A stretch of 64,000 nucleotides of DNA from Dehalococcoidia bacterium (GCA_965262725.1 OZ253555.1:352001-416000); one strand, 5' to 3'; numbered from the stretch's first letter, positions 19,354 to 63,837 are shown. Notes: a model not told the origin generated them from the sequence alone. Numbers and translations: made by a program.

Positions 19354-20249
19354 GTGACAACACAGGAACCATTGAACGACAGACACATCGGCTGCCCATT
19401 CCAGATACAGATGTGCGATCTGCAAGGCGGCATCAGTTTGGGGACCGCCTTCTTCTATGAGACGCAGGGAGAGACGTTCATCATTACGAACTGGCACAAC
19501 GTAACCGGAAAAGATCCGCTCACAGGCCAGTCGTTGGACACTGGTGGACGTTACCCCTTGTACATCCGGGCCAAGTGGGTTGTACGCGGTAAAGACCGTG
19601 AAGACGGCGCCTTCTCAGGGCATCTGGCAGCGCATCAGGTTGAGATCGAGGACGACGATGGTCCTCTCTGGTTCGAGCATCCCGAGCTCGGCTCGCTCTG
19701 CGACGTAGTTGCGATACCGTGGTCTGAGTCTCCGGTTGGGAAAGTGGCGTTTTCAATAACCCGGCGAACAAGATCGATGATGGGCTTATCCCCATAGACC
19801 CGGGGCTGAAAGCCCTGGTGATAGGGTTCCCGCGAGGACTTAGCACGGGGCCGGGGTTGCCAGTCATAAAGTCGGGGACGTTGGCATCGACTCCTGGCTA
19901 TGAGGTCCGACTCGGGGGAGCGTTCTCATCTGTGGGCGGAATGCAAGACGGCGTTTCACTCCCGGCGATGCTGCTCGACGTGCATACGGTGCCCGGAATG
20001 TCGGGCTCCCCTGTGTTCGGTGAGTACAGTGGATTCTGGAATCCGAAGGACCCACGCCGGCCTGGGATCTCCGACGACTCCACGTTCGGAGTCGGCCGAG
20101 TGTTTCTCGGCTGCCACAGTTCCCGGGTGCTCGAGGTTGAGGAACGAGCTGGACTGGCGATCTGTTACGGAGCCGACGTCATCGAAGAAATCTGTCGCAC
20201 CAAGCATGGCGGGTCGCGGTTCCCTCGTGCGCCAGAGACTTCGAACTGA
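19354..20249 (+). pseudogene. trypsin-like serine protease, split by one frameshift near 19730
   Basis: GTAFFY..ITNWHNV (His)..DVVAI (Asp), then in the next frame IGFPRG..PGMSGSPV (Ser). Confidence 0.8.
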
Positions 20250-46505: not shown

Positions 46506-49500
46506 CTATTCGTTCTCGCCGCTCGGCGAATCCGGGTCCGCCGCTGTCGCGAAGCGGTACACGCGACTCTTCGCCTGGCGTACGCCCGAGAGGGTCATCC
46601 CCCTGTCATCCGTCGGGCGCAGCTGCCCGAGGGGATCGACGATCACGCGTACGGTTGGCCGGGCATCGACACCCTCGATACCGGACACGACGACGAGGAA
46701 GAAGCCGGGTGTGGTGCGTGCCCGCTTCACCTCGGCCGCCGTCAGCGATACCTGATCCGGCTCGGCACCCGCGCTGACCTTCAGCTCATAGAAGTGGCCC
46801 AGCTGGTCGATCGCGTCGGCCCCAACGCCCCGTTGGGCGCGGAGATCCACGATCTCGTCGCCGTCGGTGTCGAGCAGCATCCGCAGGATCTCGAGCCCCA
46901 CGTTCTCCTGCTCGAGGGCCGAGTACCCGCGCAGGGTGCTCCGGTTGCGGGGCGCGCTCGATCCCGGGTTCGGCTCGGCAAGATCCACGTCGCGATGCGC
47001 CCGAGCACCGATGCCGCCTGCGGGAGCCGAGTCGGGGCGTGCCCCCTCCTCCGCTCCACCCGGCGAATCGAGGAGCCTCAGCCAACGCGGGTCCACCAGC
47101 ACGCGCGGCGCACCCATCTCCGATGCCGGATGATCGGCCTCGCGCCCATCGTCGGCGGCGCCCGAAGGCCGAGCGTCGCCCGCGGCCCGTCCGGCGGCGC
47201 CGCCAGCTGCGCGACGCCCGGCTCCCGTTCGCGCGTCAATCCCCGCCAGGCGCCTCTCGATCTCCGCCTCGTTCTGTGCCTGCTCGCGCTGGGCGCGTTC
47301 GTTGGCCAGTTCCACGCGATTCGCCTCGCGTCCATCCTCGGCCTGGTCCCAGGCGGCCCGCCACGCCTGCGCGAGCTGCCGCGGATCCCCTCCGAACAGC
47401 GCGGCGATCGCCCGCCCGCCCCCATCCACGCGTGGGAGCACCGAGGGATCGCGGACGAACACCGTGCGGAGGGCGGGCTCCACCTTCGCCGCGACGCGGG
47501 CGGTGTGCACCTCGCTCACGGCGCCCACGACCGCGGGGACGCTCAACTCGAGGCTGGGATGCACGCTCACCCCGAACTCGCCGAGGTTCTCCCACGGAAC
47601 CGTCACGCTCGCTGCCAGCTGCGGGTCGTTGCGGGCGAGATCCTCATGGAGAAGCCGAAGCGCCGCTCGGAACAGCTCCGTTGAGTCCTCATCCTCGTGG
47701 GCGAGCGTCGGTTCGATCACCGCGGAGTCGGCGGTGCGGAGCTCGGTCACGCGCAGCGGGCCGAGGAGCGGTCGGAACTGTTCGAGCTCGCCGCCCGGCT
47801 CCCAGAGCGGCAGGCCGCCACGAAGCCCCTCGGCGAGGACGCGGTCATTCGTCGCATACACCGGGCGCGCGCGCGCCCGATCGCGTACCCAGCCCAGGCT
47901 CGTCCACAGCGGTAGCCGCGCGAGGGTGGGCGCCTTCACAACGTTCCCCCGCGAGTGATGCGAAGCGAGCGCCCGGAGCGTCTCGAGCAGGATGGTCAGC
48001 TCGGTGCCATCCGGCGCGCGCCGGCGGCGGGCGATCGTGCGGATCACGGCCACGCAGTCGTCTGGTGAGGGCTCCCGGAGACCGAGTGCGCGCCAGAGCG
48101 GCTCGGTGCCCTCGACAGCCGGGGCGAACGCCCGGTGGTCGCCGAATATGGGTGGCCCCGCGAGAACGCTCCGCGGAGGAAGCCAGCCCGCTTTCGTGAG
48201 GACGAGGCCTCGGCCGCGCTCGAACGCCCTGCGCAACTCGTTCTCGGTGAGATCAGAGCGAGAGTTCCGCGTCGTGAGCGAACGGGACAGAGCCCGGTAG
48301 ACAACGGCGACATCCGCGATCGTGCCGCCGGACGGGGATGCGGCCCGCAACTGATCGAGCCGGCGGACGAGCGCGGAGCGGCCGGGGTCGGTGGTGACGC
48401 CGAGCGCGCCGAGCACGTCGGGTCGCGTGGAGCGAGGAAGGTCGCGGTGAAGATAGCCCGGCGCGTCGTCACCGTAGATGGCCTCGGTCCCCGGAGTTCT
48501 GACGCGCAGCTCGGCCGGCCGGCGCGCGATCCCGCTCTCGTCGTCGAGCCAGGCAACAGCCGAGGCTTGCCAGAGCCAGAACGCGCGGACCCGCCCCCTC
48601 ATCTGCCAGTTGTGGTACTCCGCCGCGGCGTCGACTTCGGCGATGTCGCCCAGTCGCCGGTCCCACGCTCGGCCCAGGGTCGCAAGCAGCGCGCCGGCGC
48701 GCTCGCGCCTCCGTCTCTTGCCGCGCTCGCGGGTGATGTCCCGGACCACTGCCAGGAGGTCGGGGCTGTCGTAATCGTCGAGGGTGTAGGTCGCCTCACG
48801 CTCCCGCAACGCCTGACGGCGGGAGGACACGCCGCCGGCAACCCCGGCGGGCAGGCCTTTGCGGCGGTCGACATAGCGCAGCTCGAGCTGCGGGTGCGCT
48901 CGTGCGCGGGGTGCCGTCTCGGCCCCGAGCAGCCGCAGGAACTGGAGTGCTCCGATCCCGCCCCGACCGGCGGGCGAACGGAGCACGCGCGCGTACCGTC
49001 CACCGAGCCACACGAGCCCGGGCGTTTCCCGGGCCGCCACCGCGAAGCTGTCCGGCTCCCGATCGACGGTTCGGGGCAGATACGCATCCGCGGGGCGAGC
49101 GCTGAGGGTCCTGCGCCGCTTCCGGTCGTAGGTGTATGCCTCGAGGGCCACGGCGCGACCGACGTCAGCCCCGAGCTCGTCGCGTTCCGTCGGGTTCATT
49201 GGCTCGAAGGCGTTCCGCAGTGCCTGCACCTGCTCGTCCGTGAGGGGCGCATCGAGCCTGCGTCCCGATCGACCGGCAGCGGCGAGACGGCGGACCACCG
49301 CGCGATCGTCGGAGCCGTCGAGGAGGGCTCCCGACTCGCGGAGCCACGCGAGGACTGCGGGGGCTCCGTCGCCGTCGCCGAGGTGGGCGGGGTGCAACAG
49401 CGTCACGACGCCGAGCTGCTCCGCCAGCGGGGTCGCGCTCGCCGCGAGGGCCTCCGGTGCGTCCTGGGGTGGAGGGACGAGGCGCCGGCGGTCCTGGGCG

Positions 49501-51068
49501 ATCACGAACGGGAGCGTGAGCAGGCGCGCGCCGAGGCCCTCGCCGAGAGCCGCCGCGGCGAGGGCGATCGTGGCATCCGGGGCCCGGGCGTCGTCGCCCA
49601 CGAGCTCGAGTGCTTGTTCGACGCTCACTGGCTCGGGAAGGTCTGCACCGGCTGCTCGCCAGTCCTCCAGCACGGCTCGCCAGCGGCCGGCCCGGTCCCT
49701 GACCGCGCTGGGGATCGCCGCCGGGAGGCCGGCCAGTTCGGCCGTCTCGGCCGCGGTCAGGATCCCCTCCAGCGCTCGCGCCTCGACCGCGAGCTCCGCC
49801 AGGCGGACGCGGCCGCGACCGGGCACGGGGAACGCGAGGTGGGAAGCGATCCACCGCCTCGCGCGATCGGTGATCGCCTTCTCCAGGGCGCGGACTACCG
49901 GCGATGTCGTTTCGTCCTCGTCGGAGCCCGCGATCGGCATGGCGTGCCACGCGACTCCGGGATCGCGCTGGAAGAGGTCGAGCGCCGCGTGCGACCAGAG
50001 CTCGGCGATCCGGGGCAGGAGCGAGAGGTTCCAGTCGCTGTGTGCGAAGTCGCGGCGGCTCGCGAGCGGGTCGAACTGCGCGTTCACGAACAGCGGCAAT
50101 CGCGTCGAGGCGACGGGGAGTCCCTCGTGGACCTGTCCGGTCTCGACGGGGCGGAGCGGTAGCGCCACGGAGACCGGGACCGTGGAGTCGGTGGCCTTCA
50201 TGGCCCGCATGACGCCGGCGGGCGCGGAGACCTCGGTGCTGTAGACGGCCCACGAGCGCCCGTCCGCCGACTCCACTCGCTGCCGGGACGCGGTTCGGGC
50301 TCCGGGAGACGGGGGCGGGCCCAGTTCGCCCTCGTCCCGACGGGAGAGCGCGAGTTCGTGAACCACGTCGCCTTCCGGCGCGAGCAGGGTGACTCGCGAG
50401 ACGCTGCGAAGGAAGAGCAGGGCGGCATCGTCCCAGCGTTGGAGCCACTGCTCGACATCCGCCAGGCTCACGACGCCCGGTTCCAGCGGCACCCGCAGGG
50501 TGGTCCAGCCCGCCCCGCCGAACCACGCCGGCAGAGCGGGCGGCTCGATCGGCGTGACGGGGGGCTTGCCGCCGAGGCGCACGTGGTACGGGTGGCAGTG
50601 GACCTCGAGCGTGCTCGAGAGCGATCGGAGGGTCATGAGCCCGATCCCGAAGCGACCGATCGCGTCGGCTTCGTCACGCTTCGTACTGAGCCACGGCGTC
50701 GCCAGGCCGAGCACATGGCGCAGGCGCACCGGCCGGCCGTTGTGGCCTACCAGCAAGTCGGTCGGCCTCAGGAGCAGCCGGACCTGCGAGGCCCCGACAT
50801 CGTCGGCGTTCTGGACGATCTCGGAGAGCCCCTGGAGCCGATCGCTCGACAGCAGGCTGCCGCTGCTGAGACCAGCATCCAGGACACGCTTGGCGACGCC
50901 CGAGAGACGCTCGAATGCCTCACCCAGCTCCCGGGTCGCCGCCCGGGCTTCGGAGACATCGCGCGGTTCGTAGGTGGGCTCCGCACCGTCCTCGGCGTCG
51001 AACAACCGCCTGGCGGCATCCACGGCGAGCCGGACTCGCTCACCTCCAGCGTCCTGGGCCTCAGTCAT
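46506..51068 (-). CDS. large sacsin-like N-terminal GHKL ATPase protein with C-terminal DUF3883/NOV-like nuclease domain
   Basis: EIVQNADD..HNGRP..STK..IGRFGIGL; LPLFVNAQF..SRR; C-terminal GVGADAID..YELKV..LTAAE..FFLVVV. Confidence 0.82.
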   Translation of the reverse strand: MTEAQDAGGERVRLAVDAARRLFDAEDGAEPTYEPRDVSEARAATRELGEAFERLSGVAKRVLDAGLSSGSLLSSDRLQGLSEIVQNADDVGASQVRLLLRPTDLLVGHNGRPVRLRHVLGLATPWLSTKRDEADAIGRFGIGLMTLRSLSSTLEVHCHPYHVRLGGKPPVTPIEPPALPAWFGGAGWTTLRVPLEPGVVSLADVEQWLQRWDDAALLFLRSVSRVTLLAPEGDVVHELALSRRDEGELGPPPSPGARTASRQRVESADGRSWAVYSTEVSAPAGVMRAMKATDSTVPVSVALPLRPVETGQVHEGLPVASTRLPLFVNAQFDPLASRRDFAHSDWNLSLLPRIAELWSHAALDLFQRDPGVAWHAMPIAGSDEDETTSPVVRALEKAITDRARRWIASHLAFPVPGRGRVRLAELAVEARALEGILTAAETAELAGLPAAIPSAVRDRAGRWRAVLEDWRAAGADLPEPVSVEQALELVGDDARAPDATIALAAAALGEGLGARLLTLPFVIAQDRRRLVPPPQDAPEALAASATPLAEQLGVVTLLHPAHLGDGDGAPAVLAWLRESGALLDGSDDRAVVRRLAAAGRSGRRLDAPLTDEQVQALRNAFEPMNPTERDELGADVGRAVALEAYTYDRKRRRTLSARPADAYLPRTVDREPDSFAVAARETPGLVWLGGRYARVLRSPAGRGGIGALQFLRLLGAETAPRARAHPQLELRYVDRRKGLPAGVAGGVSSRRQALREREATYTLDDYDSPDLLAVVRDITRERGKRRRRERAGALLATLGRAWDRRLGDIAEVDAAAEYHNWQMRGRVRAFWLWQASAVAWLDDESGIARRPAELRVRTPGTEAIYGDDAPGYLHRDLPRSTRPDVLGALGVTTDPGRSALVRRLDQLRAASPSGGTIADVAVVYRALSRSLTTRNSRSDLTENELRRAFERGRGLVLTKAGWLPPRSVLAGPPIFGDHRAFAPAVEGTEPLWRALGLREPSPDDCVAVIRTIARRRRAPDGTELTILLETLRALASHHSRGNVVKAPTLARLPLWTSLGWVRDRARARPVYATNDRVLAEGLRGGLPLWEPGGELEQFRPLLGPLRVTELRTADSAVIEPTLAHEDEDSTELFRAALRLLHEDLARNDPQLAASVTVPWENLGEFGVSVHPSLELSVPAVVGAVSEVHTARVAAKVEPALRTVFVRDPSVLPRVDGGGRAIAALFGGDPRQLAQAWRAAWDQAEDGREANRVELANERAQREQAQNEAEIERRLAGIDARTGAGRRAAGGAAGRAAGDARPSGAADDGREADHPASEMGAPRVLVDPRWLRLLDSPGGAEEGARPDSAPAGGIGARAHRDVDLAEPNPGSSAPRNRSTLRGYSALEQENVGLEILRMLLDTDGDEIVDLRAQRGVGADAIDQLGHFYELKVSAGAEPDQVSLTAAEVKRARTTPGFFLVVVSGIEGVDARPTVRVIVDPLGQLRPTDDRGMTLSGVRQAKSRVYRFATAADPDSPSGENE

Positions 51069-51316
51069 GTCCTGGGCCCGGATCCAGGAGCGCCAGGCCA
51101 CCTGGTGATGGGGGCGTGAGGTGGAAGTCCTCTACGGCACAGCGCGAGCTGTCGATAGCGTTCCGTGGGCCGCGCGCGGGTCGCCGAGAGGCGGACCGTG
51201 AAGGGTCCGTAGCGCGGAGCGCGGGCGGGGCTGTTGCGAGAGGTCCCGGGCACCAGTGTCTGTGGCTCACCCAAGAGGAATCTCCGCGGCGCCGCGCACT
51301 GCACCAGGCACTCGCG

Positions 51317-51961
51317 CTACTCGTCGTCCCGCTCTCCGTGCTCAGTGCGCTCCCTCAGGTCGGCGAGCGATTCGCCGTTGAAGTACCAGAGGTGCGCGGC
51401 CGAGATCCAGTACGATCCCAGTCCGCCTCTACGCCGGATCTCGTTCGCGGCGGCGGTCAGCGATGTCTCTTGCCCCTCGAATTCGATCCGGCGGCGCGAG
51501 ACTACCGTGGCCGTGAACCCGGGCTCAGCTTCGGAGCCGGAGTCGTCATCGCTCCCGAAGTGCAGCACCGCTCCTGGCTCTAGCCCCACCATCTCGAAGT
51601 TGAACTTCTCTCGACGCTGCTTGGAGGCTTCCAGTGCTCGTCCAGCTTCCTCGTCTTCAACGACATCGGCCGCAGGCGTCACGTCGCGTCCCCCGGTCAA
51701 ACGCATGGCCGCAACGACGCGCTGCGCGTTGACCCGGAAAAACTCGCGGCTCCGGCGTACGCGCTGGTCACCGAATGCCTCATGCAGCAGGCGTTCGGCC
51801 CCGATGTGGTCCTCGACCTCCAGGGCGAGCGCGCACACGAAGGGCACCGGGACGCTCGTGTTGTCGAGTTGGCGCAGGCGCTGCTCGATGTCGGTCGTGC
51901 AACCGATCTTCACGACGTCGGGCATCTCCGGGTTTTCGAGACAGTAGACGATACCTGGCAT
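51317..51961 (-). CDS. GIY-YIG nuclease, T5orf172 family
   Basis: GIVYCLENPEMPDVVKIGCT..RLRQL..TSVPVPF..E..LH..REFF. Confidence 0.9.
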   Translation of the reverse strand: MPGIVYCLENPEMPDVVKIGCTTDIEQRLRQLDNTSVPVPFVCALALEVEDHIGAERLLHEAFGDQRVRRSREFFRVNAQRVVAAMRLTGGRDVTPAADVVEDEEAGRALEASKQRREKFNFEMVGLEPGAVLHFGSDDDSGSEAEPGFTATVVSRRRIEFEGQETSLTAAANEIRRRGGLGSYWISAAHLWYFNGESLADLRERTEHGERDDE

Positions 51962-52328
51962 GCGGCTCCGTTCGTGCCGGCCGCGAGCCCGTGCAGGCCA
52001 CGAGGCCGTCCCTGAAGATCAGAGGGCCATCTTCGTCACCGCGAGTGAACGTGCTCACCAGCCGCTTCCCCTCAGGGAGGGTCGGTGCGCACGAGAGTAT
52101 CCGAACCGTAAGGCGGCCCGCCAGAGAGCCAACGCCTGAGCCTTGGTCCACGTCCCGCTAGATCCAAAGCGAGTGCGCCCACGTGCAGACGCATTCCGCC
52201 GCTCAGGGCCCTGGTCGGTGCCGTCGAGGTATAGCCAGAAGTTGTGGATGAGCCAGGAGAGAGAGGCGGCGTACCCTCCCTGAGTCAACAGGAGTGGCCG
52301 GGAAGCCGGCCGGGGAGGAGTACGCCGG

Positions 52329-53352
52329 ATGTTGAGGATAGTCCATGAGGGAGGCGAGCGGGAAGCGGGGCCGGGGACGCAGGTCGGACTGGACGAGCTC
52401 TGCCGTATGGCCGCCCAGGAGATGCTCGGGGTGGCGCTGGAGGCCGAACGGCAGGCCTACCTCGAGCGTCACGCGGGCGCGGTCGATGGAGAGGGCCGCC
52501 GCGTGGTCGTCGGCAACGGCTACGCCCGCGCGAGAGAGATCACGACCGCCGCGGGACGGGTCGCCGTACAGGCGCCGCGCGTCGACGACCGCCGTCCCGG
52601 CGAGCGCTACATCTCGGCGCTTCTGCCGCCCTACATGCGGCGCTCGCCCAAGGTGACCGAGGTGTTGCCGCTGCTCTACCTGCGCGGGCTCTCGACGGGC
52701 GACTTCCTGCCCGCCCTGTCGGCGTTCTTCGGCTCGGGGGCGGGGCTCTCCGCCTCGACCGTGGGGCGGCTCACGGAGGCGTGGCAGGCCGAGCACGAGC
52801 GCTGGCAGCGACGCAGCCTGGCCGAAGTCGACTACGTCTACCTCTGGGCGGACGGCGTCCACTTCACCGTGCGTCTCGAGGAGGACCGGCTCTGCTGCCT
52901 GGTGCTGGTCGGGGTGCGCCCGGACGGCCGCAAGGAGCTGGTGGCCGTGCAGGACGGCTACCGTGAGGACACCCAGTCCTGGCTCGACCTGCTGCGGGAC
53001 CTGCGCGAGCGGGGCATGCGCGACCCCGAGCTGGCCGTCGGCGACGGGGCGCTCGGGTTCTGGGCGGCGCTGCGGGAGGTCTTCCCCCGGACCCGCGAGC
53101 AGCGCTGCTGGGTGCACAAGACCGCGAACGTCCTGGCGTCGCTGCCCGAGCGCGTCCAGGGGGAAGCAACGCGGGCGCTCCACGCCGTCTCCGGAGCCGC
53201 GACGCGCGCCGGGGCGCTGGATGCGGCGCGCACCTTCGCCGGGCAGTTCGCGCAGTGGCCGAAGGCGACAGCGAAGGTCGCCGACGACCTCGAACGGCTG
53301 CTCGCGTTCCACGACTTCCCGTCCGAGCACCACGCGCACCTGCGCACAACGA
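52329..53352 (+). pseudogene. IS256 transposase, 5' part
   Basis: LYLRGLSTGD, YLWADGV, LAVGDGALGF, QRCWVHK; ends HLRTT. Confidence 0.93.
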
Positions 53353-53519
53353 GTAGGGTGAGGAGCTGGCGCGGTACGCGCTGTAGGCCGGTGGCGCTCT
53401 TGTTCCGAGCAGGTTTCCCCGCGGTGCCCAATCCCACGGCCATGGCATATCGCCCGTTTCCAGCTCCTCCCCGTCAAACCGGACAGGCGGTTCTCCCGCA
53501 TCCGGCTTACCGACGCCCT

Positions 53520-54313
53520 TCACCGGACGGCATTCGGTTTCACCCGCCACGACCGGTTCGGCCGCGGTGCGACAACCCATCCACTGAGCGAGAGCAGACC
53601 GAGGCGGGTCGCATGGCGGTATGACACGCCGTACCGCAGACGTTGCCGACTGCGCCGACGCTTACCCCACCACACCACCAGCCGCAACGCGGCGTACGCA
53701 CTGAGCTTGCGGAACGACTTCGCCACGTTCCCGTAACGAAAATAGCCCGCCCAGCCGCGCAGGAGGCGGTTCACCTCCTGCACGATGCGCTCCACGCTCA
53801 ACACCAACCGTGACCGCACCGTCATCTCACGGATGCGGTCACGTGCATGCTGCATCGCTCGTCGCGAGGGAAAGCGTGCAAGGAATCGGAGATTCGAACC
53901 CCGCCTAGCCCGTACCCACCGGTGTTCAAAGCCGAGGAACTCCAGCCCCTCGCCTCCTTCCGCCAGGTGCACGATGCGGGTCTTCTCCGCCTTCAGCTCC
54001 AGTCCGAGCTCGGCGACCAGCTCACGGAGCAGCGCCAGCGCCGCATCCGCTTCCCGCTGCGTTCCGCAGAGCACCACAAGGTCGTCGGCATATCGCACCA
54101 GCACTCCCCGGCCCCTCGTCTCCCATTCCCGGTCAACCCGGTGCAGATAGACGTTGGCCAGAAGCGGGGATACTACCCCGCCCTGTGGCGTACCCGTCAC
54201 GCTGTGCCGCACGGCCCCGGACTCCATCACCCCGGCACGGAGCATCGCCCGCACCAGCTTCAGGAGCTTCCGGTCATATATCCGCTCCTCCACCGCCTCC
54301 ATCAACCGGTCGT
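53520..54313 (-). pseudogene. ltrA: group II intron RT/maturase, segment 3 (no endonuclease domain)
   Basis: GTPQGGVVSPLLANVYL, RYADD, KTRIV, FLGF, LRGWAGYF. Confidence 0.93.
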
Positions 54314-54450
54314 GTAGGGTCAGGTGGGAATGATGCTCTGAATTGGCCCCACCTGGAGCCGTTTTGATCCTTTGAATTGGCCCCACCCCCGACCCATCCA
54401 GGACCTACGCTCGGGTGACTGCATGACTCCCGGAGCGAGGGAAGAGGAGT

Positions 54451-56085
54451 GTGTCGAGAGTGGAGCTGTTCGAGTCTATCCGACGGATGGCGAGGGAGGA
54501 GGAGCTGTCGATCCATGAGCTGGGACGCCGGCATGGCGTGCACCGGCGCACGGTGCGGCAGGCTCTTGGGTCGGCGATACCCCCGGAACGCAAGCAGGCG
54601 ACCCGCGTGGCCCCGAAGCTCGGGCCGTACGTCTCGGTCATCCGGGGCTGGCTCGTGGACGACCTCAGCGCGCCGCGCAAGCAGCGGCACACGGCCCGGC
54701 GCATCTGGGAGCGCCTCGTCGACGAACACGGGGCGACGGTGGCCGAGCCCACGGTCCGCGCCTGCGTCGCGCGCCTGCGTCGCGAGATCCAGGGCGGGCG
54801 CGCGGTTGTGACGATCCCGCAGGTCCATCCTCCCGGCGAGGAGGCGGAGGTCGACTTCGGCACGGTGACGGTGTGGCTGGAGGGCGTCGAGACCCGGCTG
54901 GCGATGTTCGTGATGCGGCTCTCGCATTCGGGGCGGGCGGCGCACGTCTGCTTCGTCGGCGAGGGCCAGGAGTCTCTGCTCGAGGGGCACGTGGTCGCCT
55001 TCGAGCGGCTCGGCGGAGTGCCGCGGCGCATCCGCTACGACAATCTGACGGCGGCCGTCACCACCGTGCTGCAGGGACGCGAGCGCCTGCAGACCGAGCG
55101 CTTCATCGCGCTCCGCTCGCATTACGGCTTCGACAGCTTCTTCTGTGAGCCCGGCATCGAGGGCGCGCACGAGAAGGGCGGTGTGGAGGGCGAGGTCGGC
55201 CGCTTCCGCCGGCGGCACTTCGTGCCGGTCCCGAAGGTGGCGACCCTCGGCGAGCTGAACGAACGAGTGCGGGAGGCGGACCGCACCGACGACGCCCGGC
55301 ACATCGAGAGCCGCCTCGCCACCGTCGGCGAGATGGGAGAGAACGAGAAGGCCTCGCTGCGTCCGCTTCCGGCGGAGCGCTTCGACCCGTCAATCCCGCT
55401 GCGCGCGAAGGTCGACCGCAAGGCGCGCATCGCCGTGCGTAGCTCCCGCTACTCGGTCCCGGCGGCCTATGCAGGCCGGAAGCTGGACGTGCGGCTGTCC
55501 GGGAACAGCCTGACCGTGTGGGCCGAGGGGCGTGAAGTCGCCCACCACGAGCGCAGCGCCCGCACCGGAGCAGAGGTCCTGCTGCTCGACCACTATCTGG
55601 AGGTGCTCGCGCGCAAGCCCGGGGCGGTCCCGGGCTCGGTGGCGCTCCAGCAGGCGCGTGCGAAGGGACACGTCACAGCCGAGCATCAGCGCTTCTGGGA
55701 CCGCGCCCGCCGCAAGCTCGGCGACCGCGCGGGCACGCAGGCGTACATCGAGGTCCTGCTCCTGCATCGCCATCTTCCCTTCACGGCGGTGCACGCCGCG
55801 CTCGGGACGGTCAACAGGATCCAGTCGGTGAACCCCGAACTGGTCGCCATCGAGGCGCGCCGTCTCGCCGACCGCAGGCCACCAGACGCCGCCGTCGAGA
55901 GACCGCACCTGGAGCGCTACGACCGACCTGCCCCGCTCCTCGATGGCTACGATGCGCTGCTCTCGGGTGATTCCCGATGGCCCGGCACGTCGCCGGGCGG
56001 GCGCTCCCGCGCTCCGCGGTCTGCCGAGAACGCGTCGCACACCACCACAACCGCCGTCACCGCTGCGGTGTCGACGGCACGCTGA
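54451..56085 (+). CDS. istA: IS21 transposase IstA
   Basis: HTH, EAEVDFG, GGVPRRIRYDN, HEKGGVE, YSVP. Confidence 0.93.
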   Translation: MSRVELFESIRRMAREEELSIHELGRRHGVHRRTVRQALGSAIPPERKQATRVAPKLGPYVSVIRGWLVDDLSAPRKQRHTARRIWERLVDEHGATVAEPTVRACVARLRREIQGGRAVVTIPQVHPPGEEAEVDFGTVTVWLEGVETRLAMFVMRLSHSGRAAHVCFVGEGQESLLEGHVVAFERLGGVPRRIRYDNLTAAVTTVLQGRERLQTERFIALRSHYGFDSFFCEPGIEGAHEKGGVEGEVGRFRRRHFVPVPKVATLGELNERVREADRTDDARHIESRLATVGEMGENEKASLRPLPAERFDPSIPLRAKVDRKARIAVRSSRYSVPAAYAGRKLDVRLSGNSLTVWAEGREVAHHERSARTGAEVLLLDHYLEVLARKPGAVPGSVALQQARAKGHVTAEHQRFWDRARRKLGDRAGTQAYIEVLLLHRHLPFTAVHAALGTVNRIQSVNPELVAIEARRLADRRPPDAAVERPHLERYDRPAPLLDGYDALLSGDSRWPGTSPGGRSRAPRSAENASHTTTTAVTAAVSTAR

Positions 56086-56101
56086 CCACAGGAGGCACCC
56101 G

Positions 56102-56884
56102 ATGACAGCACCCCTCACCGACCAGGCCGCGGAGCTGACAATCGAGGCGATCTGCCGCGAGCTCCGTCTCCCCACCGTCAGGAAGCAGGCGCTCCCGCTC
56201 GCCGAAGCCGCGGTCCGAGACCGGATCACCCATCTGGGCTATCTCGCCGAAGTGCTGGGAGCCGAACGCGATGACCGTGAGGAGCGGCGCCGTCAGCGCC
56301 GTATCGTCGAGGCGCGGTTCCCGCGTTTCAAGTACCTCGCCGACTTCGACCTCGAGGCGGCGCCGACAGTCGACGCGCCGGCGCTCGCCACGCTGGAGCG
56401 CTGCGACTGGGTCGAAAGGGGCGAGCCCGTCGTCCTGCTCGGTGACAGCGGCACCGGGAAGTCACACCTGCTCATCGGCCTCGGCATGGCCGCCTGCCAC
56501 CTGGGGCTGCGCGTGCGGTACATGACCACGGCCGCCCTGGTGAATGAACTGGCCGAAGCGTCGGATGATCGCGCGCTCTCACGCCTCGTCGCCCGCTACG
56601 GCCGCCTCGACCTGCTCTGCCTGGATGAGTTCGGGTACGTCCACCTCGACCCGCGCGGTGCCGAAATGCTGTTCCAGATCCTGACCGAGCGCGAGGAACG
56701 GGCATCGGTCGCCGTCGCCTCCAACTCCCCGTTCTCCGAGTGGGGCCGCATCTTCACCGACCCTCGTCTCGCCGCGGCCGTCGTTGACCGCCTCACCTAC
56801 CGTGCCCATATCATCGAGACCGGCACCGAGTCCTACCGGCTCCGGGCCTCGACCTCCCCGAGAGGAGGTGCCCCAACGACCTGA
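56102..56884 (+). CDS. istB: IS21 helper ATPase IstB
   Basis: GDSGTGKSHL, LLCLDEFGY, SN.PFSEW, AVVDRL, GTESYRL. Confidence 0.93.
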   Translation: MTAPLTDQAAELTIEAICRELRLPTVRKQALPLAEAAVRDRITHLGYLAEVLGAERDDREERRRQRRIVEARFPRFKYLADFDLEAAPTVDAPALATLERCDWVERGEPVVLLGDSGTGKSHLLIGLGMAACHLGLRVRYMTTAALVNELAEASDDRALSRLVARYGRLDLLCLDEFGYVHLDPRGAEMLFQILTEREERASVAVASNSPFSEWGRIFTDPRLAAAVVDRLTYRAHIIETGTESYRLRASTSPRGGAPTT

Positions 56885-57808
56885 TCCCGGTCCCCGGGGG
56901 TGGGGCCAGATCAGAGGATCAAAGTGGGGCCAGATGTAAGCATCATTCCCAGTCAGGGGCTGGCGCGGTGCGAGCCGTAGGCGGTGGCGCATCAGTTCCA
57001 AGCCGGTTTCCCGGTGGTGCCCAACTCCACGGCCATAGCAGCGTCCGTCTCCAGCCCCTGCCACATCGAACCGGACGTGAGGTTCTCCCTCATCCGGCTC
57101 ACCGATGCCCTTCACCAGATGGCATGCAGCGCTCCCCACAACGTGGGTCGTGCCTTGGCCAGCCGGTACAGCATGTGCGGAGAGCCTCGAATCCTACCAA
57201 GTGGTTGCTAGCCCCGAGGGGCACTCACCAGTCCACACCCCCAGCAACATGCACGGACAAAGTAGGGGTCCTTCCCATCACCGGCGGTTATGTTGTCCGT
57301 CCGGCTCCAGCGGTACTACGACCCCCTCCGCCACCCTTCCGGCTGGCTGTCCACTTCCCGGCTCTGACCGGTTATAGGACGCCTCGCTCCGACGCCCTCT
57401 CACAGGGTGCCGGGCCGGGGAGGGCTTCTCCGGTTCCCGTCGCTACCTTCCGTACGTTCCACGTCCCATACGCCGGGAGGTTTCTTGAGGCTGCATTCCA
57501 GGATCTTCACCTCGTCCATGGCCTTCGCCCTGACCACCCGGGCTCGGCTCCTCCTTGGTCCTGTCAATAGACAGGCGAGTCTCACGGCGCGGCAGACTTC
57601 GCGTCATGCTGCGGACCGCACGTTTGCTCCCCCTCATAGGGCTCTTGACGTCGGGCTTCGACGCAGACCGTTTCCCGTCCACGCCGCCGACCTGCTAACG
57701 GGCCTCCTGACAGTTACCCGTGCCGGACTCTCACCGGCTGGCAGCAACGAGCATGTCTCCGGACCGGTCACGTCATCACGTCACCACCCCTTCGACTTCC
57801 GGACGCAC

Positions 57809-58128
57809 GCGGTATCGACTCGAAACACGAGGCGATATCCGTCTCCACCACCCATCGCCGACCCCGCCACGTCTCATCAATGAGCACTTGCAGGGCATCA
57901 TGCGCCGCACGCTTCGGGCGAAAGCCAAAGCTACACGGCAGAAAGTCGGCCTCAAAGACCGGCTCCGCCACCAGCTTCAGCGCTGCCTGTACGATGCGGT
58001 CGTGGACCGTCGGGATAGAGAGCGGTCGTCGCTCCGACCGTCCGGGCTTGGGAATCCAGACCCGGCGGCTCGGCTGCACGCGATAGCTCTCCGCCTTCAG
58101 TTCCACGGACAGTTCGTCAAGCAGTCGG
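57809..58128 (-). pseudogene. ltrA: group II intron RT/maturase, segment 2
   Basis: RRVWIPKPG..RPLSIPTVHDRIVQ..SFGFRPKR..WVVETDIASCFESIP. Confidence 0.93.
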
Positions 58129-58224
58129 TGTCGATCGCCAGGGTCATTGATCCACGCGTCGCCACGGTCATTAGACCACCCGGGACGCCGGTAGGCGGCT
58201 TGATATCAGTGAGCGTCTAGCGCG

Positions 58225-58998
58225 TCAATCACCTCCCGTCTGCGCCTCGAGCAGGGCGCGGTGCGGCGAGAGCCGCTGGCGGTAGCTATCGCCCTCGATC
58301 ACGATCTGGTAGCTGGCGTTGGCGAGGCGGTCGAGGGCGCTGTTGCCGAGGATCGGGTCGTCGAAGAGACCCAGCCATTCCTCCACGGCGCGGTTCGAGG
58401 TGATGACGAAGCTGGAGCTGCGGTGGCGCCCGATGACCAGCTCGTAGAGGTCGATGGACTGCTGCGCGCTGAGGCGATGGAGCCCGAGGTCGTCGAGGAT
58501 GAGCAGGTCGGGCGCGAGGAAGCTTCGGAAGACCTTCTCGGCCGAGTGGTCGACGCGGGCCTGCGCCATCTCGCGGAAGTAGTGGTCGGCCGGGGCGAAG
58601 CGGACGCTGCGTCCGGAGCGGACGGCTGAGTAGCCGAGCGCCTGGGCTAAGAAGCTCTTGCCGACGCCGACGGGGCCGACGAGCAGGACGTGCTCGCGGC
58701 GGTCGAGGAAGTGCAGCGAGAAGGCGGCGTCGAGCAGGCGGCGGTCGAGCCGGATGGCGGCCGCCCAGTCGAAGTCCTCGAGGCGGCAGAGCTGCTCGAA
58801 GCCGGCCTGGCGCAGGCGCAGCTCCAACCGCCCGTGGTCGCGGCGGCTCACCTCGTCGACGAGCAGGATCTGCAGGAAGTCCGCGTAGTCGAGGTGGTCG
58901 CGCCGCGCGAGGGCGATGCGCTCGGGCAACGTGTCGAGCATGCGGCCGAGCTTGAGGCGCTTGAGCAGCGGACGGAGGTCTGAGGTGGTGGCGGTCAT
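58225..58998 (-). CDS. istB: IS21 helper ATPase IstB
   Basis: GPVGVGKSFL, LLILDDLG, ITSNR, ALDRL, GDSYR. Confidence 0.93.
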   Translation of the reverse strand: MTATTSDLRPLLKRLKLGRMLDTLPERIALARRDHLDYADFLQILLVDEVSRRDHGRLELRLRQAGFEQLCRLEDFDWAAAIRLDRRLLDAAFSLHFLDRREHVLLVGPVGVGKSFLAQALGYSAVRSGRSVRFAPADHYFREMAQARVDHSAEKVFRSFLAPDLLILDDLGLHRLSAQQSIDLYELVIGRHRSSSFVITSNRAVEEWLGLFDDPILGNSALDRLANASYQIVIEGDSYRQRLSPHRALLEAQTGGD

Positions 58999-60575
58999 CG
59001 TGGTGCTCCTGTCGGGGTCTGCGTGCGGGACTGTGCGAAGACGGAGCCCGAGTGGGCGAAGCGCCCCGGAGGCGGCGGCAGCTCGGGCTGGTCTGGGGTG
59101 CTCTCCTGGTCGAGGGCCTCGACGAGGATGCGCTCGAGGCGGCGCACGTCGATGAGGTCGACCTCGAGCGCGCGGCGGCAGGCGGCGTCGAGGCGGTCCG
59201 GGGAGTAGCGCTCGGCGAGGCGCAGCAGCTTGTGGCCCTGCCGGAGCTTCGCCCAGGGCAGGGAGCCCTCGAAGAGACGCTCGGCGTAGGCGCCCACGGC
59301 CTCCCCCAGCTCGGCGGCGCGGCGCTGTATCCAGTCGGGCGCCCGCCTGGTGTAGGGGGTGAGCTCGGCCGGGTAGTCGTTCGGGTCGGTGGCCCGGCCG
59401 CCCCGGCGCTGGTGCGCGTGGACCTTGATGAGCTGACCGCGGTGGTAGATGCGCACCAGCTTCGAGCCGAGCTGCACCTCGACCTTCTGGCGGGGCGGGC
59501 AGGCCGTGGACGGCACCGAGTACAGCGCGTACTGGCAGGCGATGTGGTGGTCGGGATGGACCGTGGCGGTCCGCCAGTCGGGGACCTCGTAGGGCTCGCC
59601 GTCCCAGGGAGCGAGGAGAGGGAGCTCCTCCTCCCGGAAGACCTCGAGCGGCCGGCGGCGTGTCGTGCCGTGGATGCGCTGTCCCGCCACCTCCAGGCAC
59701 CAGCTGCGGGCGGCGGAGCGCAGGTCGACGACGTCCCGGAAGTCGCCGCCCTTGAAGAGGCGCTCGCGCACGTAGGGGATGCTGCGCTCGACGCGCGGCT
59801 TGTCGCGGGGATGACGCACGCGCGCGGGGTCGGTGATGAAGCCTCTGTGGCGGGCGTACTCGAGGAAGCCCCGCGTGAAGCGCGGGTGCAGCGCGTCGGC
59901 CCCGGCGACGGCGGCCGGGAAGTTATCGATGACGAGGTAGCGCGGCACGCCCCCGAAGAAGGCCCAGGCCTCCTCCAGGCCCTCGATCACAGCGTCCAGC
60001 TTCTGGCTGGTGGTGGGCCACACAAAGCAGTGGCGGGAGTAGCGCCAGACGACGACCAGCGCCCACACCGCGCGCCGGCGGCCGCTCTCGGGGTCCCGGA
60101 TGAAGCCGAGGCGGCCGAAGTCCATCTCCGCCACCTCGCCCGGCGGCCCGTCGTCCATGCGCACGGTCGACGGCAGCCGGTGGCGCCAGCCGCGGCGCCG
60201 GATGAAACGCCGCAGCGTGGTGTAGGAGACCTCGCAGCCTCGTCCGGCGAGGAGCTCCTGGATGCGCGTCAGTTGCAGGCGGTCGGTCTCAAGCCAGCGC
60301 TCGATCCGCTCCGCCCAGGGCGAGAGCAGCTCCTCGCTCGGCGCCTCGACCTGCCGCGGGCCGGAGAGGCTCAGCGTCGCCAGCGCGGCGAGCTGCTCCT
60401 CACTCGGCTCGGGACCGCCCGGCGTGAGGCCGGCCGCCTCGGCCGCCTCGACGTAGCGGCGCACCGTCACGCGCGATAGCCCCGTGCCGCTGGCGATGCG
60501 GCGCTGGCTGAGCCCCGCCTGCCAGCGTCGAATGATCTCCTGGATCTCCACCCCGTGTACCTCCCGGTAGGCCAT
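58995..60575 (-). CDS. istA: IS21 transposase IstA
   Basis: AEMDFG, FGGVPRYLVIDN, DKPRVER, HGTT, YSVP. Confidence 0.93.
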   Translation of the reverse strand: MAYREVHGVEIQEIIRRWQAGLSQRRIASGTGLSRVTVRRYVEAAEAAGLTPGGPEPSEEQLAALATLSLSGPRQVEAPSEELLSPWAERIERWLETDRLQLTRIQELLAGRGCEVSYTTLRRFIRRRGWRHRLPSTVRMDDGPPGEVAEMDFGRLGFIRDPESGRRRAVWALVVVWRYSRHCFVWPTTSQKLDAVIEGLEEAWAFFGGVPRYLVIDNFPAAVAGADALHPRFTRGFLEYARHRGFITDPARVRHPRDKPRVERSIPYVRERLFKGGDFRDVVDLRSAARSWCLEVAGQRIHGTTRRRPLEVFREEELPLLAPWDGEPYEVPDWRTATVHPDHHIACQYALYSVPSTACPPRQKVEVQLGSKLVRIYHRGQLIKVHAHQRRGGRATDPNDYPAELTPYTRRAPDWIQRRAAELGEAVGAYAERLFEGSLPWAKLRQGHKLLRLAERYSPDRLDAACRRALEVDLIDVRRLERILVEALDQESTPDQPELPPPPGRFAHSGSVFAQSRTQTPTGAPR

Positions 60576-60732
60576 CGCTGCTCCCTCCGCTGGGGATGCA
60601 GGCGATGGTGGCCGTACCGGCGACCCGGGCGGGCAGGAGTCCCTGACGGGGTGGATCAATGACCCTGGCGAAGTGGATCAATGACCCTGGCGATCTGGCG
60701 ATTTCGTGGTCTATAGACCTTGGCGATTCACA

Positions 60733-60960
60733 CAGTCGGTCCACGCCGTAGCGTTCGACCTCGGCAAGGGTGATGCCGTCGATGCCGGCTGCGCCGCGAT
60801 TGCGACGCACTTGCCCCCACCCGCGCTCCAGAACGTCCCTGCGGTGGACCTTGTCGTAGAGCGCATGAAAACGTCGTCCGGGCTCGGCCTTGGCCGCCCG
60901 GTAGAGCGTGCGCTGTAGTTCTCGGACCGTTTCCTTGGCGGGTCTAGCCTCCACGGGCAC
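60733..60960 (-). pseudogene. ltrA: group II intron RT/maturase, segment 1 (RT0)
   Basis: VRELQRTLYRAAK..RFHALYDKV..VRRNRGAAGIDG. Confidence 0.92.
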
Positions 60961-61539
60961 TCACCGATCCTTCCCCAAGCAACACGCACAGGCGAAGTAG
61001 CGGCCCTTCCCTCACCGGCGGTTCTGTTGTCCGCTCGGCTCAGTCGGTAATATGGCCGCCTCCGACTCCCTCCCGGCAGGTCGCCCACTTCCCGGCTCAT
61101 CACCGGTTATAGGACGCCTCACTCCGACACCATTCCGCAGGTACCGGGCCGGGGAGGGCCTCCCTTGTTCCCGTTGTCACCTTCCACACGTTCCACGCCC
61201 CTTACGCCGGGAAGTTCTTCGAGATTGCGATTCCAGGTCTTCATCTCTTCCATGGCCTTCGCCCTGAGGGTCGGGGCTCGGCTCTTCCTCTTTCCCGCCA
61301 ATGGCGGGGACTCTTACGACGCGGCAGGCTTCGCTTTATGCTGCGGACCGTGTGTTTGCTTCCCCTGAAAGGGCTTTCGACGTCGGGCTCCGACCCGGTC
61401 CGTTTCCAGACCAAGCCGCCGACCTGCTACCGCAGCCTCCTGATAGTTACCCGGACCGGACTTGCACCGGTTGGCGACAACGAGCACGTCTCCAGACTGG
61501 TCAGGTCATCCTGCACCGTCCTTCAACTTCAAGGCGCAC

Positions 61540-61793
61540 ACCCGATCGAGTCCACCTTCGCGACGGTGCGGCTGCGCCAGCGCGTCACGAAGGGCGCCGG
61601 GTCGCGGTCGGCGGGACTGGCGATGGCCTACAAACTGCTCGACGCCGCGCAGCAGCGCTGGCGGCGGGTGAACGCCCCGCATCTCGTCGCCGTCGTCCGG
61701 GCGGGCGGCGTCTTCGTCGATGGCGTCCTACAGGAACGAGCCGTCAGCCCGGATCCGAGCGACGACGCACGCCACGGGAGGTACGCCGCCTGA
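61540..61793 (+). pseudogene. IS256 transposase, 3' part
   Basis: (N)PIESTFATVRLRQRVTKGAGSR..AMAYKL..WRRVNAPHLV. Confidence 0.93.
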
Positions 61794-62223
61794 CTTGCCC
61801 TGGCCAGCGATCCACAACTCTTGACGATATCTCGGTGCCGTCGGAGCGGCGCGTCTGGCGCGCTCTCTTCAGGGACTGACGCCTTCCCTGTAGTTCACCG
61901 GCGAAGGCATGTCCCGCCGCCGTCACGGGCTGCCCGTGCCGCTGCCTGATCGTTCTCCGCCCGCCGGCGTGGTCGGCCGGCGGCTGCGGCGACGCTCGAG
62001 TAGGTGCCGGCGACGACGCCGACCAGGAATGAACGGGATTCGCGTGGATGCGGCCCCTGTTGCGACCGTGCGAGATGGGGCGTCGGGCAACGACGCCATC
62101 GCTTCGGGGTCGGGCCGCCTTCGCGACGGTCCGTTGAGGATTGTAGTCTCGGGGGCGAGGGCAGCGATGCGAACGGGTGCATAGAGCAACGCAAGCGGCT
62201 GCGGGAGTGGGCCGGGGATCGTC

Positions 62224-63837
62224 GTGCAGGACCGTTACGTCGGAGACGTGGGCGACTTCGGCAAGTACGGTCTGCTGCGCGCGCTGTGCTGCGCGGACGA
62301 GCACGGCGCGGCGCTCCGCCTCGGCGTCCACTGGCACCGCGTCGATGGGGGGCCACCGTCCCCTCGCGGCGACGGGAGCCACACGCAGTACCTCGACCGT
62401 CCCTCGCGACAGGAACGGCTGCTGCGCGAGTGTGATCGCGATCTGCTCGCACGGATGCGGCAACTCGTGCGCGGCACGCGCACCATCGACGCCGTCGAGA
62501 CGAGCGGCGCGCTGCCCGCGGGGACGCTGTACTTCGGCCGGGCGCCGGACTTCGCGCGGGCGCCCCGCGCGGAGCGACCCTCGCAGCGAAGCCGCTGGCG
62601 CGATGCCGGACTGCGGGCACTCGAAGACGCCGACATCGTCTTCCAGGATCCCGACAACGGGCTGGAGGTGCCGAGCAGCCGACCGCTCACCCGGCCGGGG
62701 ACGAAGCACGCGTACTACGACGACCTCCGCGCGTACTGGCAGAGAGGCCAGAGTCTCGTCGTGTACCACCACGTCGGCCGCACCTGGCGGGGGCAACAGG
62801 CGACGGCCGAGGAGCAGGTCGCGCACCGGGTGACGGAGCTGCGCCGCGAACTACCCGGAGCCGAGCCCCTGGCGCTCCGCTTCAGGCGGCGCTCCGCGCG
62901 TGTCTACTTCGTGGTGCCGGCTCCCGCGCACGACGGCAGGCTGAGGGCCAGGGCGTCGGCGTTCCTGTCGTCCGCGTGGGGCCGGGGACACCCTCCGCAC
63001 TTCGAGGGAATGGGGTGGCCGCCCCGCCACGTGGACGCACCGGGCGGAGCGCCGCGCCCGGGTCGGCCGGCGCGCGACGGCGGCGGCGGTGCGCCGAAGC
63101 CGACGATCCACGTCTCGCTGCTGGCCGGCTTCGGGGTCACCGTGGACGGCGTCGCGAGGAAGGTGCCGGAGGCGGCAAGCCGGCTCGCCGCATTGCTGGC
63201 CCTCCGGCCCGGGCGATTCTCCCGGTTTCTCGTCGCGAAGACGCTCCGGCCCGACCTCCCCCGCGCAGATGCCGCGCGGCACCTGCGCGGGGCGCTCCGC
63301 CGACTCCGCGCGTCCACGTCCCCGGCGATCGTCGAGTCCGGAAGCGAGACGGTCCGGCTCGCTTCGCACGTGACGGTCGACAGCCGGGAGGTGGATGACC
63401 TGCTTGCTCGGCGCCGCGAGGACATCGACGGGTTCCTGAGAGCGGCCGAGCCCGAGCGCCTCACCCGGGAACTGCTGCCCGGGTGGGACGAGCAGTGGGT
63501 CCTGCTCAAGCGTCACCGACACCACGCTCTCTCCTGGTACGCGCTCGATGCGTACATCCGCGAGCACATCGATCGCGGCAACCTCTCCGAGGCGCGGCGC
63601 GCGATCGACGTGGCGCTTGACGCCGACCCGCTGCACGAGCCGGCGGTGCGCGCCCTGATCGGGATCCACCGCGCAGCGGGCAATCGCGACGAGGCGATCC
63701 AGACCTATTTCCGCTTCCGGGACCGCTGGTACGACGAGATCGGACTCGAACCCCACGAGATGAAAGCACTCCTCAGGTGGCTCCTGACCCGGGACTTGCG
63801 AACGCTCGAGCCGCGCGAGCGGAGGACCGAACCCTAG
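62224..63837 (+). CDS. fusion of a conserved hypothetical domain with a SARP-like wHTH/BTAD domain
   Basis: MQDRYVGDVGDFGKYGLLR..IVFQDPDNGLE; Pro/Gly linker; LLAGFGV..LLALLAL..LLPGWDEQW..DPLHEPA. Confidence 0.65.
   Translation: MQDRYVGDVGDFGKYGLLRALCCADEHGAALRLGVHWHRVDGGPPSPRGDGSHTQYLDRPSRQERLLRECDRDLLARMRQLVRGTRTIDAVETSGALPAGTLYFGRAPDFARAPRAERPSQRSRWRDAGLRALEDADIVFQDPDNGLEVPSSRPLTRPGTKHAYYDDLRAYWQRGQSLVVYHHVGRTWRGQQATAEEQVAHRVTELRRELPGAEPLALRFRRRSARVYFVVPAPAHDGRLRARASAFLSSAWGRGHPPHFEGMGWPPRHVDAPGGAPRPGRPARDGGGGAPKPTIHVSLLAGFGVTVDGVARKVPEAASRLAALLALRPGRFSRFLVAKTLRPDLPRADAARHLRGALRRLRASTSPAIVESGSETVRLASHVTVDSREVDDLLARRREDIDGFLRAAEPERLTRELLPGWDEQWVLLKRHRHHALSWYALDAYIREHIDRGNLSEARRAIDVALDADPLHEPAVRALIGIHRAAGNRDEAIQTYFRFRDRWYDEIGLEPHEMKALLRWLLTRDLRTLEPRERRTEP

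Follow-up and report, generated by a model that had tools for sequence, protein, structure and literature searches.

Results

Five nested mobile elements in 9.6 kb

The DNA analyzed here is a stretch of 64,000 nucleotides (hereafter the window; genome positions 352001-416000) from a Dehalococcoidia bacterium (GCA_965262725.1, OZ253555.1), the genome of which is a single contig of 3,674,403 bp with 70.6% G+C. Within it lie, one inside the other, an insertion sequence (IS) of the IS256 family, two group II introns (A and B), and two different IS21-family elements (IS21-1 and IS21-2). Boundaries were determined by BLAST of window positions 52000-62200 against the same 3.67-Mb genome, followed by base-by-base inspection of the junctions. 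Because other genomic copies exist for all five elements, every boundary could be fixed at the point where similarity begins or ends. The five elements are stacked in 9.6 kb (52226-61833), base for base: IS256 is split by A; the reverse transcriptase (RT) gene of A is split by B and, separately, by IS21-2; and B is split by IS21-1. In the list below, coordinates are those of the window, intron domains are written D1 to D6, ORF denotes open reading frame, and EBS denotes exon-binding site.

52217-52225: target duplication of the IS256-family element, left copy, 9 bp, GGTGCCGTC
52226-53352, plus strand: IS256-family element, left part, 1127 bp, with the left inverted repeat and transposase codons 1-341 plus 1 nt (ORF start 52329)
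53353-54313, minus strand: intron A, 3' segment, 961 nt, with the C-terminal 794 nt of the RT/maturase ORF (54313 down to 53520; YADD, domain X), then D5 and D6; end CCCUAC at 53353
54314-54324, minus strand: intron B, terminal 11 nt (CCUGAC + CCUAC)
54325-56951, plus strand: IS21-1, 2627 bp, TG...CA ends; istA 54451-56085, istB within 55943-56884
56952-57808, minus strand: intron B, main body, 857 of 862 nt, ORF-less; 5' end GUGCG at 57808; second GTCAGG copy at 56952-56957
57809-58128, minus strand: intron A, middle RT segment, 320 nt, RT blocks up to ...CFESIP; left CAGTCGG copy at 58122-58128
58129-60732, minus strand: IS21-2, 2604 bp, TG...CA ends; istA in ORF 60659-58995, istB in ORF 59700-58225
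60733-61539, minus strand: intron A, 5' segment, with GUGCG at 61539, D1-D3, EBS1 and EBS2 loops, the RT start GTG at 60960 and the first 221 nt of the ORF; right CAGTCGG copy at 60733-60739
61540-61833, plus strand: IS256-family element, right part, 294 bp, with the transposase C terminus (to 61793) and the right inverted repeat
61834-61842: target duplication of the IS256-family element, right copy, 9 bp, GGTGCCGTC

On the minus strand, intron A thus runs from 61539 down to 53353 and intron B from 57808 down to 54314, both in the form GUGCG ... CCCUAC. IS21-1 entered 5 nt before the 3' end of B and is flanked by a 6-bp duplication, GTCAGG (54319-54324 and 56952-56957), and IS21-2 is flanked by a 7-bp duplication, CAGTCGG (58122-58128 and 60733-60739). 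The lengths 1421 + 2081 + 862 + 2627 + 6 + 2604 + 7 come to 9608 nt, which is the full span. A sequence-only reading of this DNA had proposed a five-element nest of these families with precisely these three target duplications; inspection of the junctions found the duplications exactly as claimed, and comparison of copies, the junctions, and profile matches bore out the nest and its family assignments.

Reading frames and family assignments

Frames resume at each break. The three pieces of the RT gene of A (221, 320, and 794 nt) make up 1335 nt, which piecewise translation reads as 444 codons plus a stop, with remainders of 2+1 nt at one break and 1+2 nt at the other and no internal stop codons. 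The codons that are split encode D at the IS21-2 site (GV-D-RLLDEL) and H at the intron B site (FESIP-H-DRL). When aligned with an uninterrupted congeneric RT, the pieces matched residues 37-102, 104-209, and 211-472, with one split codon absent per break. Piecewise translation, phase arithmetic, and a natural uninterrupted RT therefore agree on the 1335-nt in-frame ORF that had been reconstructed from the sequence alone. Across the site of A, the IS256 transposase likewise reads LRTT-N-PIESTF, as anticipated, and no break is present at this exact point in at least three other IS256 copies. The lack of internal stops in the restored frames also supports the view of the sequence-only reading that the insertions are recent.

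The left part of the IS256 element matched NF033543 with 252.8 bits over the N-terminal 341 amino acids (cutoff 150) and PF00872 with an E-value of 9.6e-53; no family match was obtained with the C-terminal 83 amino acids alone. Elements of this family measure about 1.2-1.5 kb and duplicate 8-9 bp of target, in keeping with the 1421 bp found here without inserts and the inverted repeats of 25 nt (80% complementary). The left part is 98.96-99.4% identical to four other genomic copies. For the IS21 elements, the IstA transposase profile NF033546 (cutoff 160) scored 239.7 bits with IS21-1 and 216 bits with IS21-2, and the IstB AAA+ helper profile NF038214 (cutoff 200) scored 249.4 and 212.1 bits, respectively. 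Both elements have terminal inverted repeats, with ends TGGGAA...TTCCCA in IS21-1 and TGTCGA...TTCACA in IS21-2, and the target duplications of their other copies are 5-8 bp, in line with the short duplications (4-8 bp) of the IS21 family. IS21-1 occupies 15 genomic loci at 99.9-100% identity, and IS21-2 is present in about 15 full or near-full copies at 97.5-99.0%. Pfam and NCBIfam assignments agree for the element families.

Both introns were recognized by the Rfam model RF02003 (gathering score 49), B with 102.8 bits and A with 83.3 bits. For the last 163 nt of B, folding gives a canonical D5 hairpin together with a long D6 in which a single A bulges out, 7 nt before the 3' end (z = -4.64; none of 200 shuffled sequences folds as well). 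In A, a canonical 34-nt D5 could be aligned, and the basal helix of D6 aligns with those of B and of a third intron of this genome, C. An EBS2 stem is present in A and B and absent in C. The ORF of A lies in domain 4, and the RT matched TIGR04416 at profile positions 36-137 (132.6 bits) and 140-352 (210.5 bits), with B between positions 137 and 140; each piece falls under the 300-bit cutoff of this whole-protein profile because it is a fragment. RVT_1 and GIIM Pfam matches were found in the RT pieces. The protein is without an endonuclease (En) domain, and the nearest solved RTs are 7uim (1.2e-28) and GsI-IIC (1.1e-23). The 3' segment of A is 100% identical to two other A copies.

Intron B across the genome

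B is an ORF-less intron of 862 nt, within which the RT pieces gave no tblastn match. Its closeness to intron C is evident at both ends, with 86.7% identity over the 5' 551 nt and 91.5% over the 3' 176 nt. Counted by 5' ends, the genome holds 28 copies of B, 27 of which show no differences across the 862 nt or whatever part of it they retain; the copy in the stack differs at 1 of 857 positions. An uninterrupted ectopic copy in the same window (28701-29562, minus strand) served as reference. Twelve copies occupy one site in the RT ORF of intron C, one more forms a tandem B-B at that site, three occupy the homologous codon of A, and 12 are ectopic.

Searches by tblastn with the RT pieces identified 15 RT loci of the A/C type, every one of which has B separating pieces 2 and 3. 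In the genome, neither an A or C copy lacking B (0 of 15) nor an uninterrupted A/C-type RT gene was found. Identity between C and A is 70-89% for the RT protein and 77-80% for the adjoining intron DNA. Those RT genes of this genome that are uninterrupted belong to distant intron families, D (12 loci, 10 of them continuous over the region of the B site) and E (2 loci), which are 39-47% identical to the RT of A. In the congener, the B site is unoccupied, the uninterrupted RT reading CFESIPHDRL. Of 80 related loci in other species, 78 are continuous over the B site as scored by script, one was flagged with a gap and reads through, and one is without the upstream part. The 862-nt ORF-less form was not found in the 40 related genomes searched, many of which are fragmented; B-like matches in four of them were split matches fitting ORF-containing relatives, or weak and partial. 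Since B lies in the D4 ORF of A, with 10 of 10 positions of EBS and intron-binding site (IBS) pairing there, A with B is a twintron, and a recurrent one: the stack is one decayed instance of a genome-wide system and not a unique accident.

Several further observations concern B and its partner C. In one C intron, two B copies stand head to tail (genome 549500-551223), the second beginning exactly at the end of the first, which suggests that B reinserted at the junction of 5' exon and B. One ectopic B (genome 1524130-1524991) interrupts a D-family intron within its RT ORF, at a site resembling the cognate one (...YESGY|YGFS). Each of the 12 C introns lies in antisense orientation, either at the extreme 3' terminus of a transposase gene of the IS630 family (matched by NF033545 with 207.2 bits over positions 63-297 of the 299 in the profile) or within a short derivative that shares the inverted repeats and resembles a miniature inverted-repeat transposable element (e.g. 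genome 10800-16600); ISRm2011-2, an element of Sinorhizobium meliloti, is also of the IS630 family. Two C copies broken by IS21-1 (genome 2557650-2558612 and 3125451-3125988) have a 3' RT part that is 55-59% identical to the RT of A, compared with 70% in other C copies, and may be chimeras with another intron family.

Targeting by base pairing

When the 5' parts of A, B, and C were aligned, they were found to be conserved except in two loops. The EBS1 loop, the only hypervariable one, is in each intron complementary to the end of that intron's own 5' exon: ACCC to GGGU for A, GUGG to CCGC for B, and CAAU to GUUG for C. In the second loop, EBS2, the sequence is GAGUCC for A, complementary to GGACUC, and ACUCG for B, complementary to CGAGU, both exon motifs being located 9-14 nt upstream of the insertion points; this is the loop absent from C. 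At the site of B in the RT gene of A, ACUCG pairs with CGAGU, and GUGGU with ACCGC. Over the 14 distinct sites of B, a mean of 8.4 of 10 EBS/IBS positions pair, as against 4.35 at 20000 random genome positions, only 0.23% of which reach 9 or more; where the sites vary, C alternates with U across from G, and G with A across from U, in the manner expected of wobble pairing. Both exon motifs recur with unchanged spacing next to the A copy outside IS256 (GACUC-N4-GGGU). Such pairing and spacing indicate true retrohoming or retrotransposition events and argue that the boundaries are correct.

Judged by GC skew (minimum at genome 410248, maximum at 2522220), 11 of the 12 ectopic B copies are co-oriented with fork movement. 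The same strand bias has been reported for endonuclease-less introns such as RmInt1, in the portion of PMC8914252 that treats them.

Simpler arrangements and the order of insertion

Simpler versions of the stack could be found elsewhere in the genome. Empty IS256 copies exist (e.g. genome 3369670-3368247), A with B lies outside IS256 at genome 732582-737446, and a second IS256 carrying A with B is located at genome 340883-347879, where IS21-1 sits elsewhere in the RT gene (duplication TTCCACG) and IS21-2 is missing. Of the intermediates that the sequence-only reading had named, IS256 alone and A with B were thus recovered, and IS256 with A was not: neither IS256 carrying A without B, nor A without B, was found in the genome. 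The joint 54313>57809, corresponding to A without B, was also not seen in the contigs of four of 17 sequencing runs, although contigs cannot show absence; the contig joints 53352>61540 and 58121>60733 mirror other genomic copies without A or without IS21-2. The A-B pair at genome 732582-737446 is itself a triple nest, its B being split in D5 (B positions 722/723) by an RT-encoding intron, E (genome 734423-736345), of another Rfam type (RF02005, 152.6 bits), whose 3' end reads ...CCCUACCGCGAA and not the usual AY at the junction.

From the nesting, the order IS256, A, B, and then IS21-1 had been derived. Its final step stands: both IS21 insertions are private to this locus and are therefore later than A::B, and this also places IS21-2, whose timing relative to B had been left undecided, after A::B. 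The step from A to B does not follow, since with B present in 15 of 15 A/C-type RT genes the nesting at one locus does not settle their order; A::B may already have been a twintron on entering IS256, or B may have followed A by homing immediately after. A strictly sequential history at this locus, with IS256 first, then A without B, then B into A, and the IS21 elements last, is credible, and we put its chances somewhat short of even. The nesting is compatible with it, and B does move alone, as the 12 ectopic copies attest, but retrohoming of a composite A::B as a single RNA, with D4 tolerating the presence of B, is an equally good fit, and no A or C lacking B is among the 15 loci. In Thermosynechococcus, identical inner introns in diverged outer introns were taken as separate recent insertions, according to the part of PMC2882425 devoted to them. 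Here, the near-identity of the C copies (2 variable sites in 1116 nt among nine colinear copies and none in 960 nt among 10 copies) makes that divergence test of unit against sequential movement uninformative.

The two IS256 copies that carry A at the present locus and at genome 340883-347879 differ from each other at 9 of 1127 and 9 of 294 positions, and the enclosed A is identical over 961 + 292 nt, with one indel in 800 nt. Diverged arms around a near-identical intron imply that A, or A::B, homed separately into two IS256 copies. Transposition of IS256::A::B as a unit, in trans by the transposase of intact IS256 copies, would explain why two loci have the same arrangement with different flanks; it was rejected as very unlikely, since A entered two already diverged IS256 copies, each arm of which is closer to empty IS256 copies than to its counterpart. 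A fourth, truncated remnant of A (5' 339 nt), joined to the right end of an IS256 at genome 1874581-1875219, raises the number of IS256 copies hit by A to at least three.

State of the interrupted elements

The target duplication of IS21-1 repeated CCUGAC in the 3' strand of D6 of B, including the bulged branch-point A, and a distance of 2.6 kb now separates the last 5 nt of B, with the 3' splice site, from the branch helix. Close to its 5' end, the RT gene is broken by IS21-2, and A is antisense within the IS256 transposase gene. Two private changes were also noted, namely a single-nucleotide polymorphism (SNP) in this B at 57192 and a 1-nt insertion in D1 of A near 61433, the latter lowering the RF02003 score from the 91.8 bits of two other A copies to 83.3. 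IS256, A, and B are all predicted to be inactive at this locus, and neither B nor the RT gene would be restorable by splicing. Only the IS21 elements retain intact genes in the stack.

Insertion of IS21-1 into introns is not confined to this locus. Six of its 15 loci fall within introns A, B, or C, whose combined share of the genome is about 1.5%; either a target preference or the survival of insertions in harmless DNA would account for this. Two inverted copies of IS21-1 (genome 245325-247951 and 3648916-3651542) have swapped halves of their target duplications (ACGCGG, TACATT), a pattern consistent with recombination between the two that inverted about 270 kb spanning coordinate 1.

Genomic surroundings

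The stack is flanked (46506-51961 and 62224-63837) by genes for a 1531-amino acid protein with only a weak sacsin-domain match, a T5orf172/MUG113 (GIY-YIG-like) protein, and a 537-amino acid BTAD/TPR protein; no resistance gene was found among these neighbors. The minimum of the chromosome's cumulative GC skew (genome 410248, window about 58248) falls inside the stack, and the replication origin may be nearby. At genome 1-200 kb, the GC skew has an unexpected sign. Small matching shares were seen in sponge and other metagenomes, which is no evidence of habitat.

Discussion

The stack is, very probably, a decayed pile of mobile elements built in two ways: group II introns retrohomed into other mobile elements, and IS elements inserted by a cut-and-paste or replicative route. 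In the proposed course of events, an IS256-family element would have landed in intergenic DNA with a 9-bp duplication. Intron A, with an RT/maturase that is without the endonuclease domain, would then have paired with the antisense strand of the transposase gene (EBS2 GAGUCC with GGACUC and EBS1 ACCC with GGGU). In its antisense position, A would not be spliceable from transposase mRNA, so that this IS256 copy could not make its own transposase. B, an ORF-less relative of A and C that keeps D1-D3, a D4a stem around the former RT start, D5, and D6, would have come to occupy its cognate homing site in the RT gene of A. Being non-autonomous, B was presumably mobilized in trans, filled every A/C site, and spilled over to look-alike sites; because it lies mid-RT domain, RT would be made from A or C only after B has been spliced. 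Finally, two different IS21-family elements would have struck, IS21-2 in the RT gene and IS21-1 in the 3' strand of D6 of B. A and B are predicted to be retromobile and self-splicing, to which the 28 near-identical B copies at EBS-pairing sites lend indirect support.

The position of B invites a further, speculative proposal, which we regard as doubtful. B could be the obligate gatekeeper of its own helper, in that no A/C-type RT would be made unless B splices, yet an ORF-less B would normally need an RT/maturase. The result would be an autocatalytic and possibly bistable loop, whereby trace self-splicing, or an RT of the D or E family (39-47% identical), would ignite RT production, and this would boost the splicing of B and bursts of mobility of both partners. 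If true, such a loop would explain why the 28 B copies are near-invariant, with one private SNP, and the 12 C copies near-identical, and the stack would be a burnt-out relic of such a burst.

Several points weigh against the retrohoming and insertion history set out above. The D5-D6 regions of A (36.5 bits) and B (37.3 bits) score slightly under the gathering score of RF00029 (40), which the homologous region of C reaches with 41.5 bits. At the second IS256 with A and B (genome 340883-347879), the target duplication is missing (flanks ...GGCTCCT and TCACACG...), so that not all junctions are pristine; later recombination between IS256 copies is suggested. As to an RT that might mobilize B, every cognate RT gene is interrupted by B itself, and the uninterrupted RT genes are of families with only 39-47% identity. 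Set beside the observed architecture, copy census, pairing complementarity, and strand bias, the splicing of B and its mobilization in trans are predictions from sequence. Lastly, no contig among the short-read contigs of the four runs spans the 9.6 kb, and the exact assembly of the stack is to that extent without independent verification. This, and the abundance of identical repeats of 0.86-2.6 kb in the genome (28 copies of B and 15 loci of IS21-1), would be expected of a chimera assembled from reads threaded through repeats, with elements that are not nested on one molecule; we consider this extremely improbable, since every inserted element is bordered by perfect target duplications of family-expected length, which a mis-join within a repeat would not generate at the repeat ends, since the host resumes in phase at each break, and since the genome is one 3.67-Mb contig and one short-read contig bridges the junction of IS256 with the 3' end of A, with 35 nt on the IS256 side.

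Down to single bases, this locus illustrates how retroelements and DNA transposons serve one another as safe landing sites. The genome-wide B system may matter more than the locus itself: an ORF-less intron saturates the RT genes of two helper families and occupies a dozen ectopic sites besides. It offers natural experiments on whether a twintron moves as a unit or in sequence, on the tolerance of an intron's ORF region for an inserted intron, and on the splicing of an ORF-less intron when every cognate maturase gene depends on that intron.

The closest parallel is found in Thermosynechococcus elongatus (Mohr, Ghanem and Lambowitz 2010), for which the portions of PMC2882425 on nested introns describe ORF-less TeI3 introns at one site of the TeI4 RT ORF, with identical inner copies, as well as introns whose evolved target is a conserved site within an IS or within another intron, and one case in which an IS interrupts the ORF of an intron (TeI4g::ISEL2f). 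As in that system, ORF-less introns derived from RT-encoding ones occupy a conserved site in the helper's RT ORF, and there they are mobilized in trans (PMC2882425). The two differ in that the inner intron of T. elongatus lies between the first two ATGs, so that RT synthesis could start at the second ATG without splicing, and two introns there have continuous ORFs, according to the same portions of PMC2882425. B, in contrast, lies mid-RT domain and occupies 15 of 15 cognate RT genes, and the RT is shorter (444 amino acids) and without an endonuclease domain. The host, too, is different: by its nearest named relatives (Dehalococcoidia metagenome-assembled genomes) it is Dehalococcoidia-like, whereas T. 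elongatus is a cyanobacterium. Full-text literature searches returned nothing on group II introns of a Dehalococcoidia-like lineage.

More generally, bacterial ORF-less introns nearly always co-occur with related introns whose RT may act in trans, and several bacterial twintrons are known, as summarized in the relevant sections of PMC4424553. Those sections also describe nests of up to five introns in Methanosarcina, formed by repeated homing into introns. The triple nest of A, B, and E found here resembles those of Methanosarcina acetivorans, which act as perpetual homing sites and leave host genes unaffected (PMC4424553). The latter are archaeal, and the sections of PMC4424553 dealing with them do not mention IS elements as part of the nests; here, the nest interleaves introns with elements of two DNA-transposon families, IS256 and IS21. 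Trichodesmium provides another bacterial twintron, for which sequential splicing is required according to the part of PMC4649490 on it; sequential splicing is predicted here. The sequence-only reading had expected automated annotation to yield scattered fragments only, and the description of one intron survey's pipeline in PMC8919778, by which the outer intron of twintrons is missed, lends this support.

For homing into IS elements, the model is RmInt1 of Sinorhizobium meliloti, which homes into ISRm2011-2 (in the relevant part of PMC1802570) and whose RT is described in parts of PMC1802570 and PMC8914252 as lacking the D and En domains. RmInt1 shares with the present introns an RT without an En domain, a natural homing site in an IS, and a lagging-strand-template bias (PMC1802570, PMC8914252), the sites being IS256 for A and an IS630-family gene for C. 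A difference from RmInt1 is that A and C are antisense to the transposase.

Each ingredient of the locus therefore has precedent, and it is a new example of a known phenomenon that leaves the understanding of the mechanisms unchanged. What is distinctive is the position of B mid-RT domain, its occupancy of 15 of 15 sites, the interleaving of introns with two DNA-transposon families, and the host lineage.

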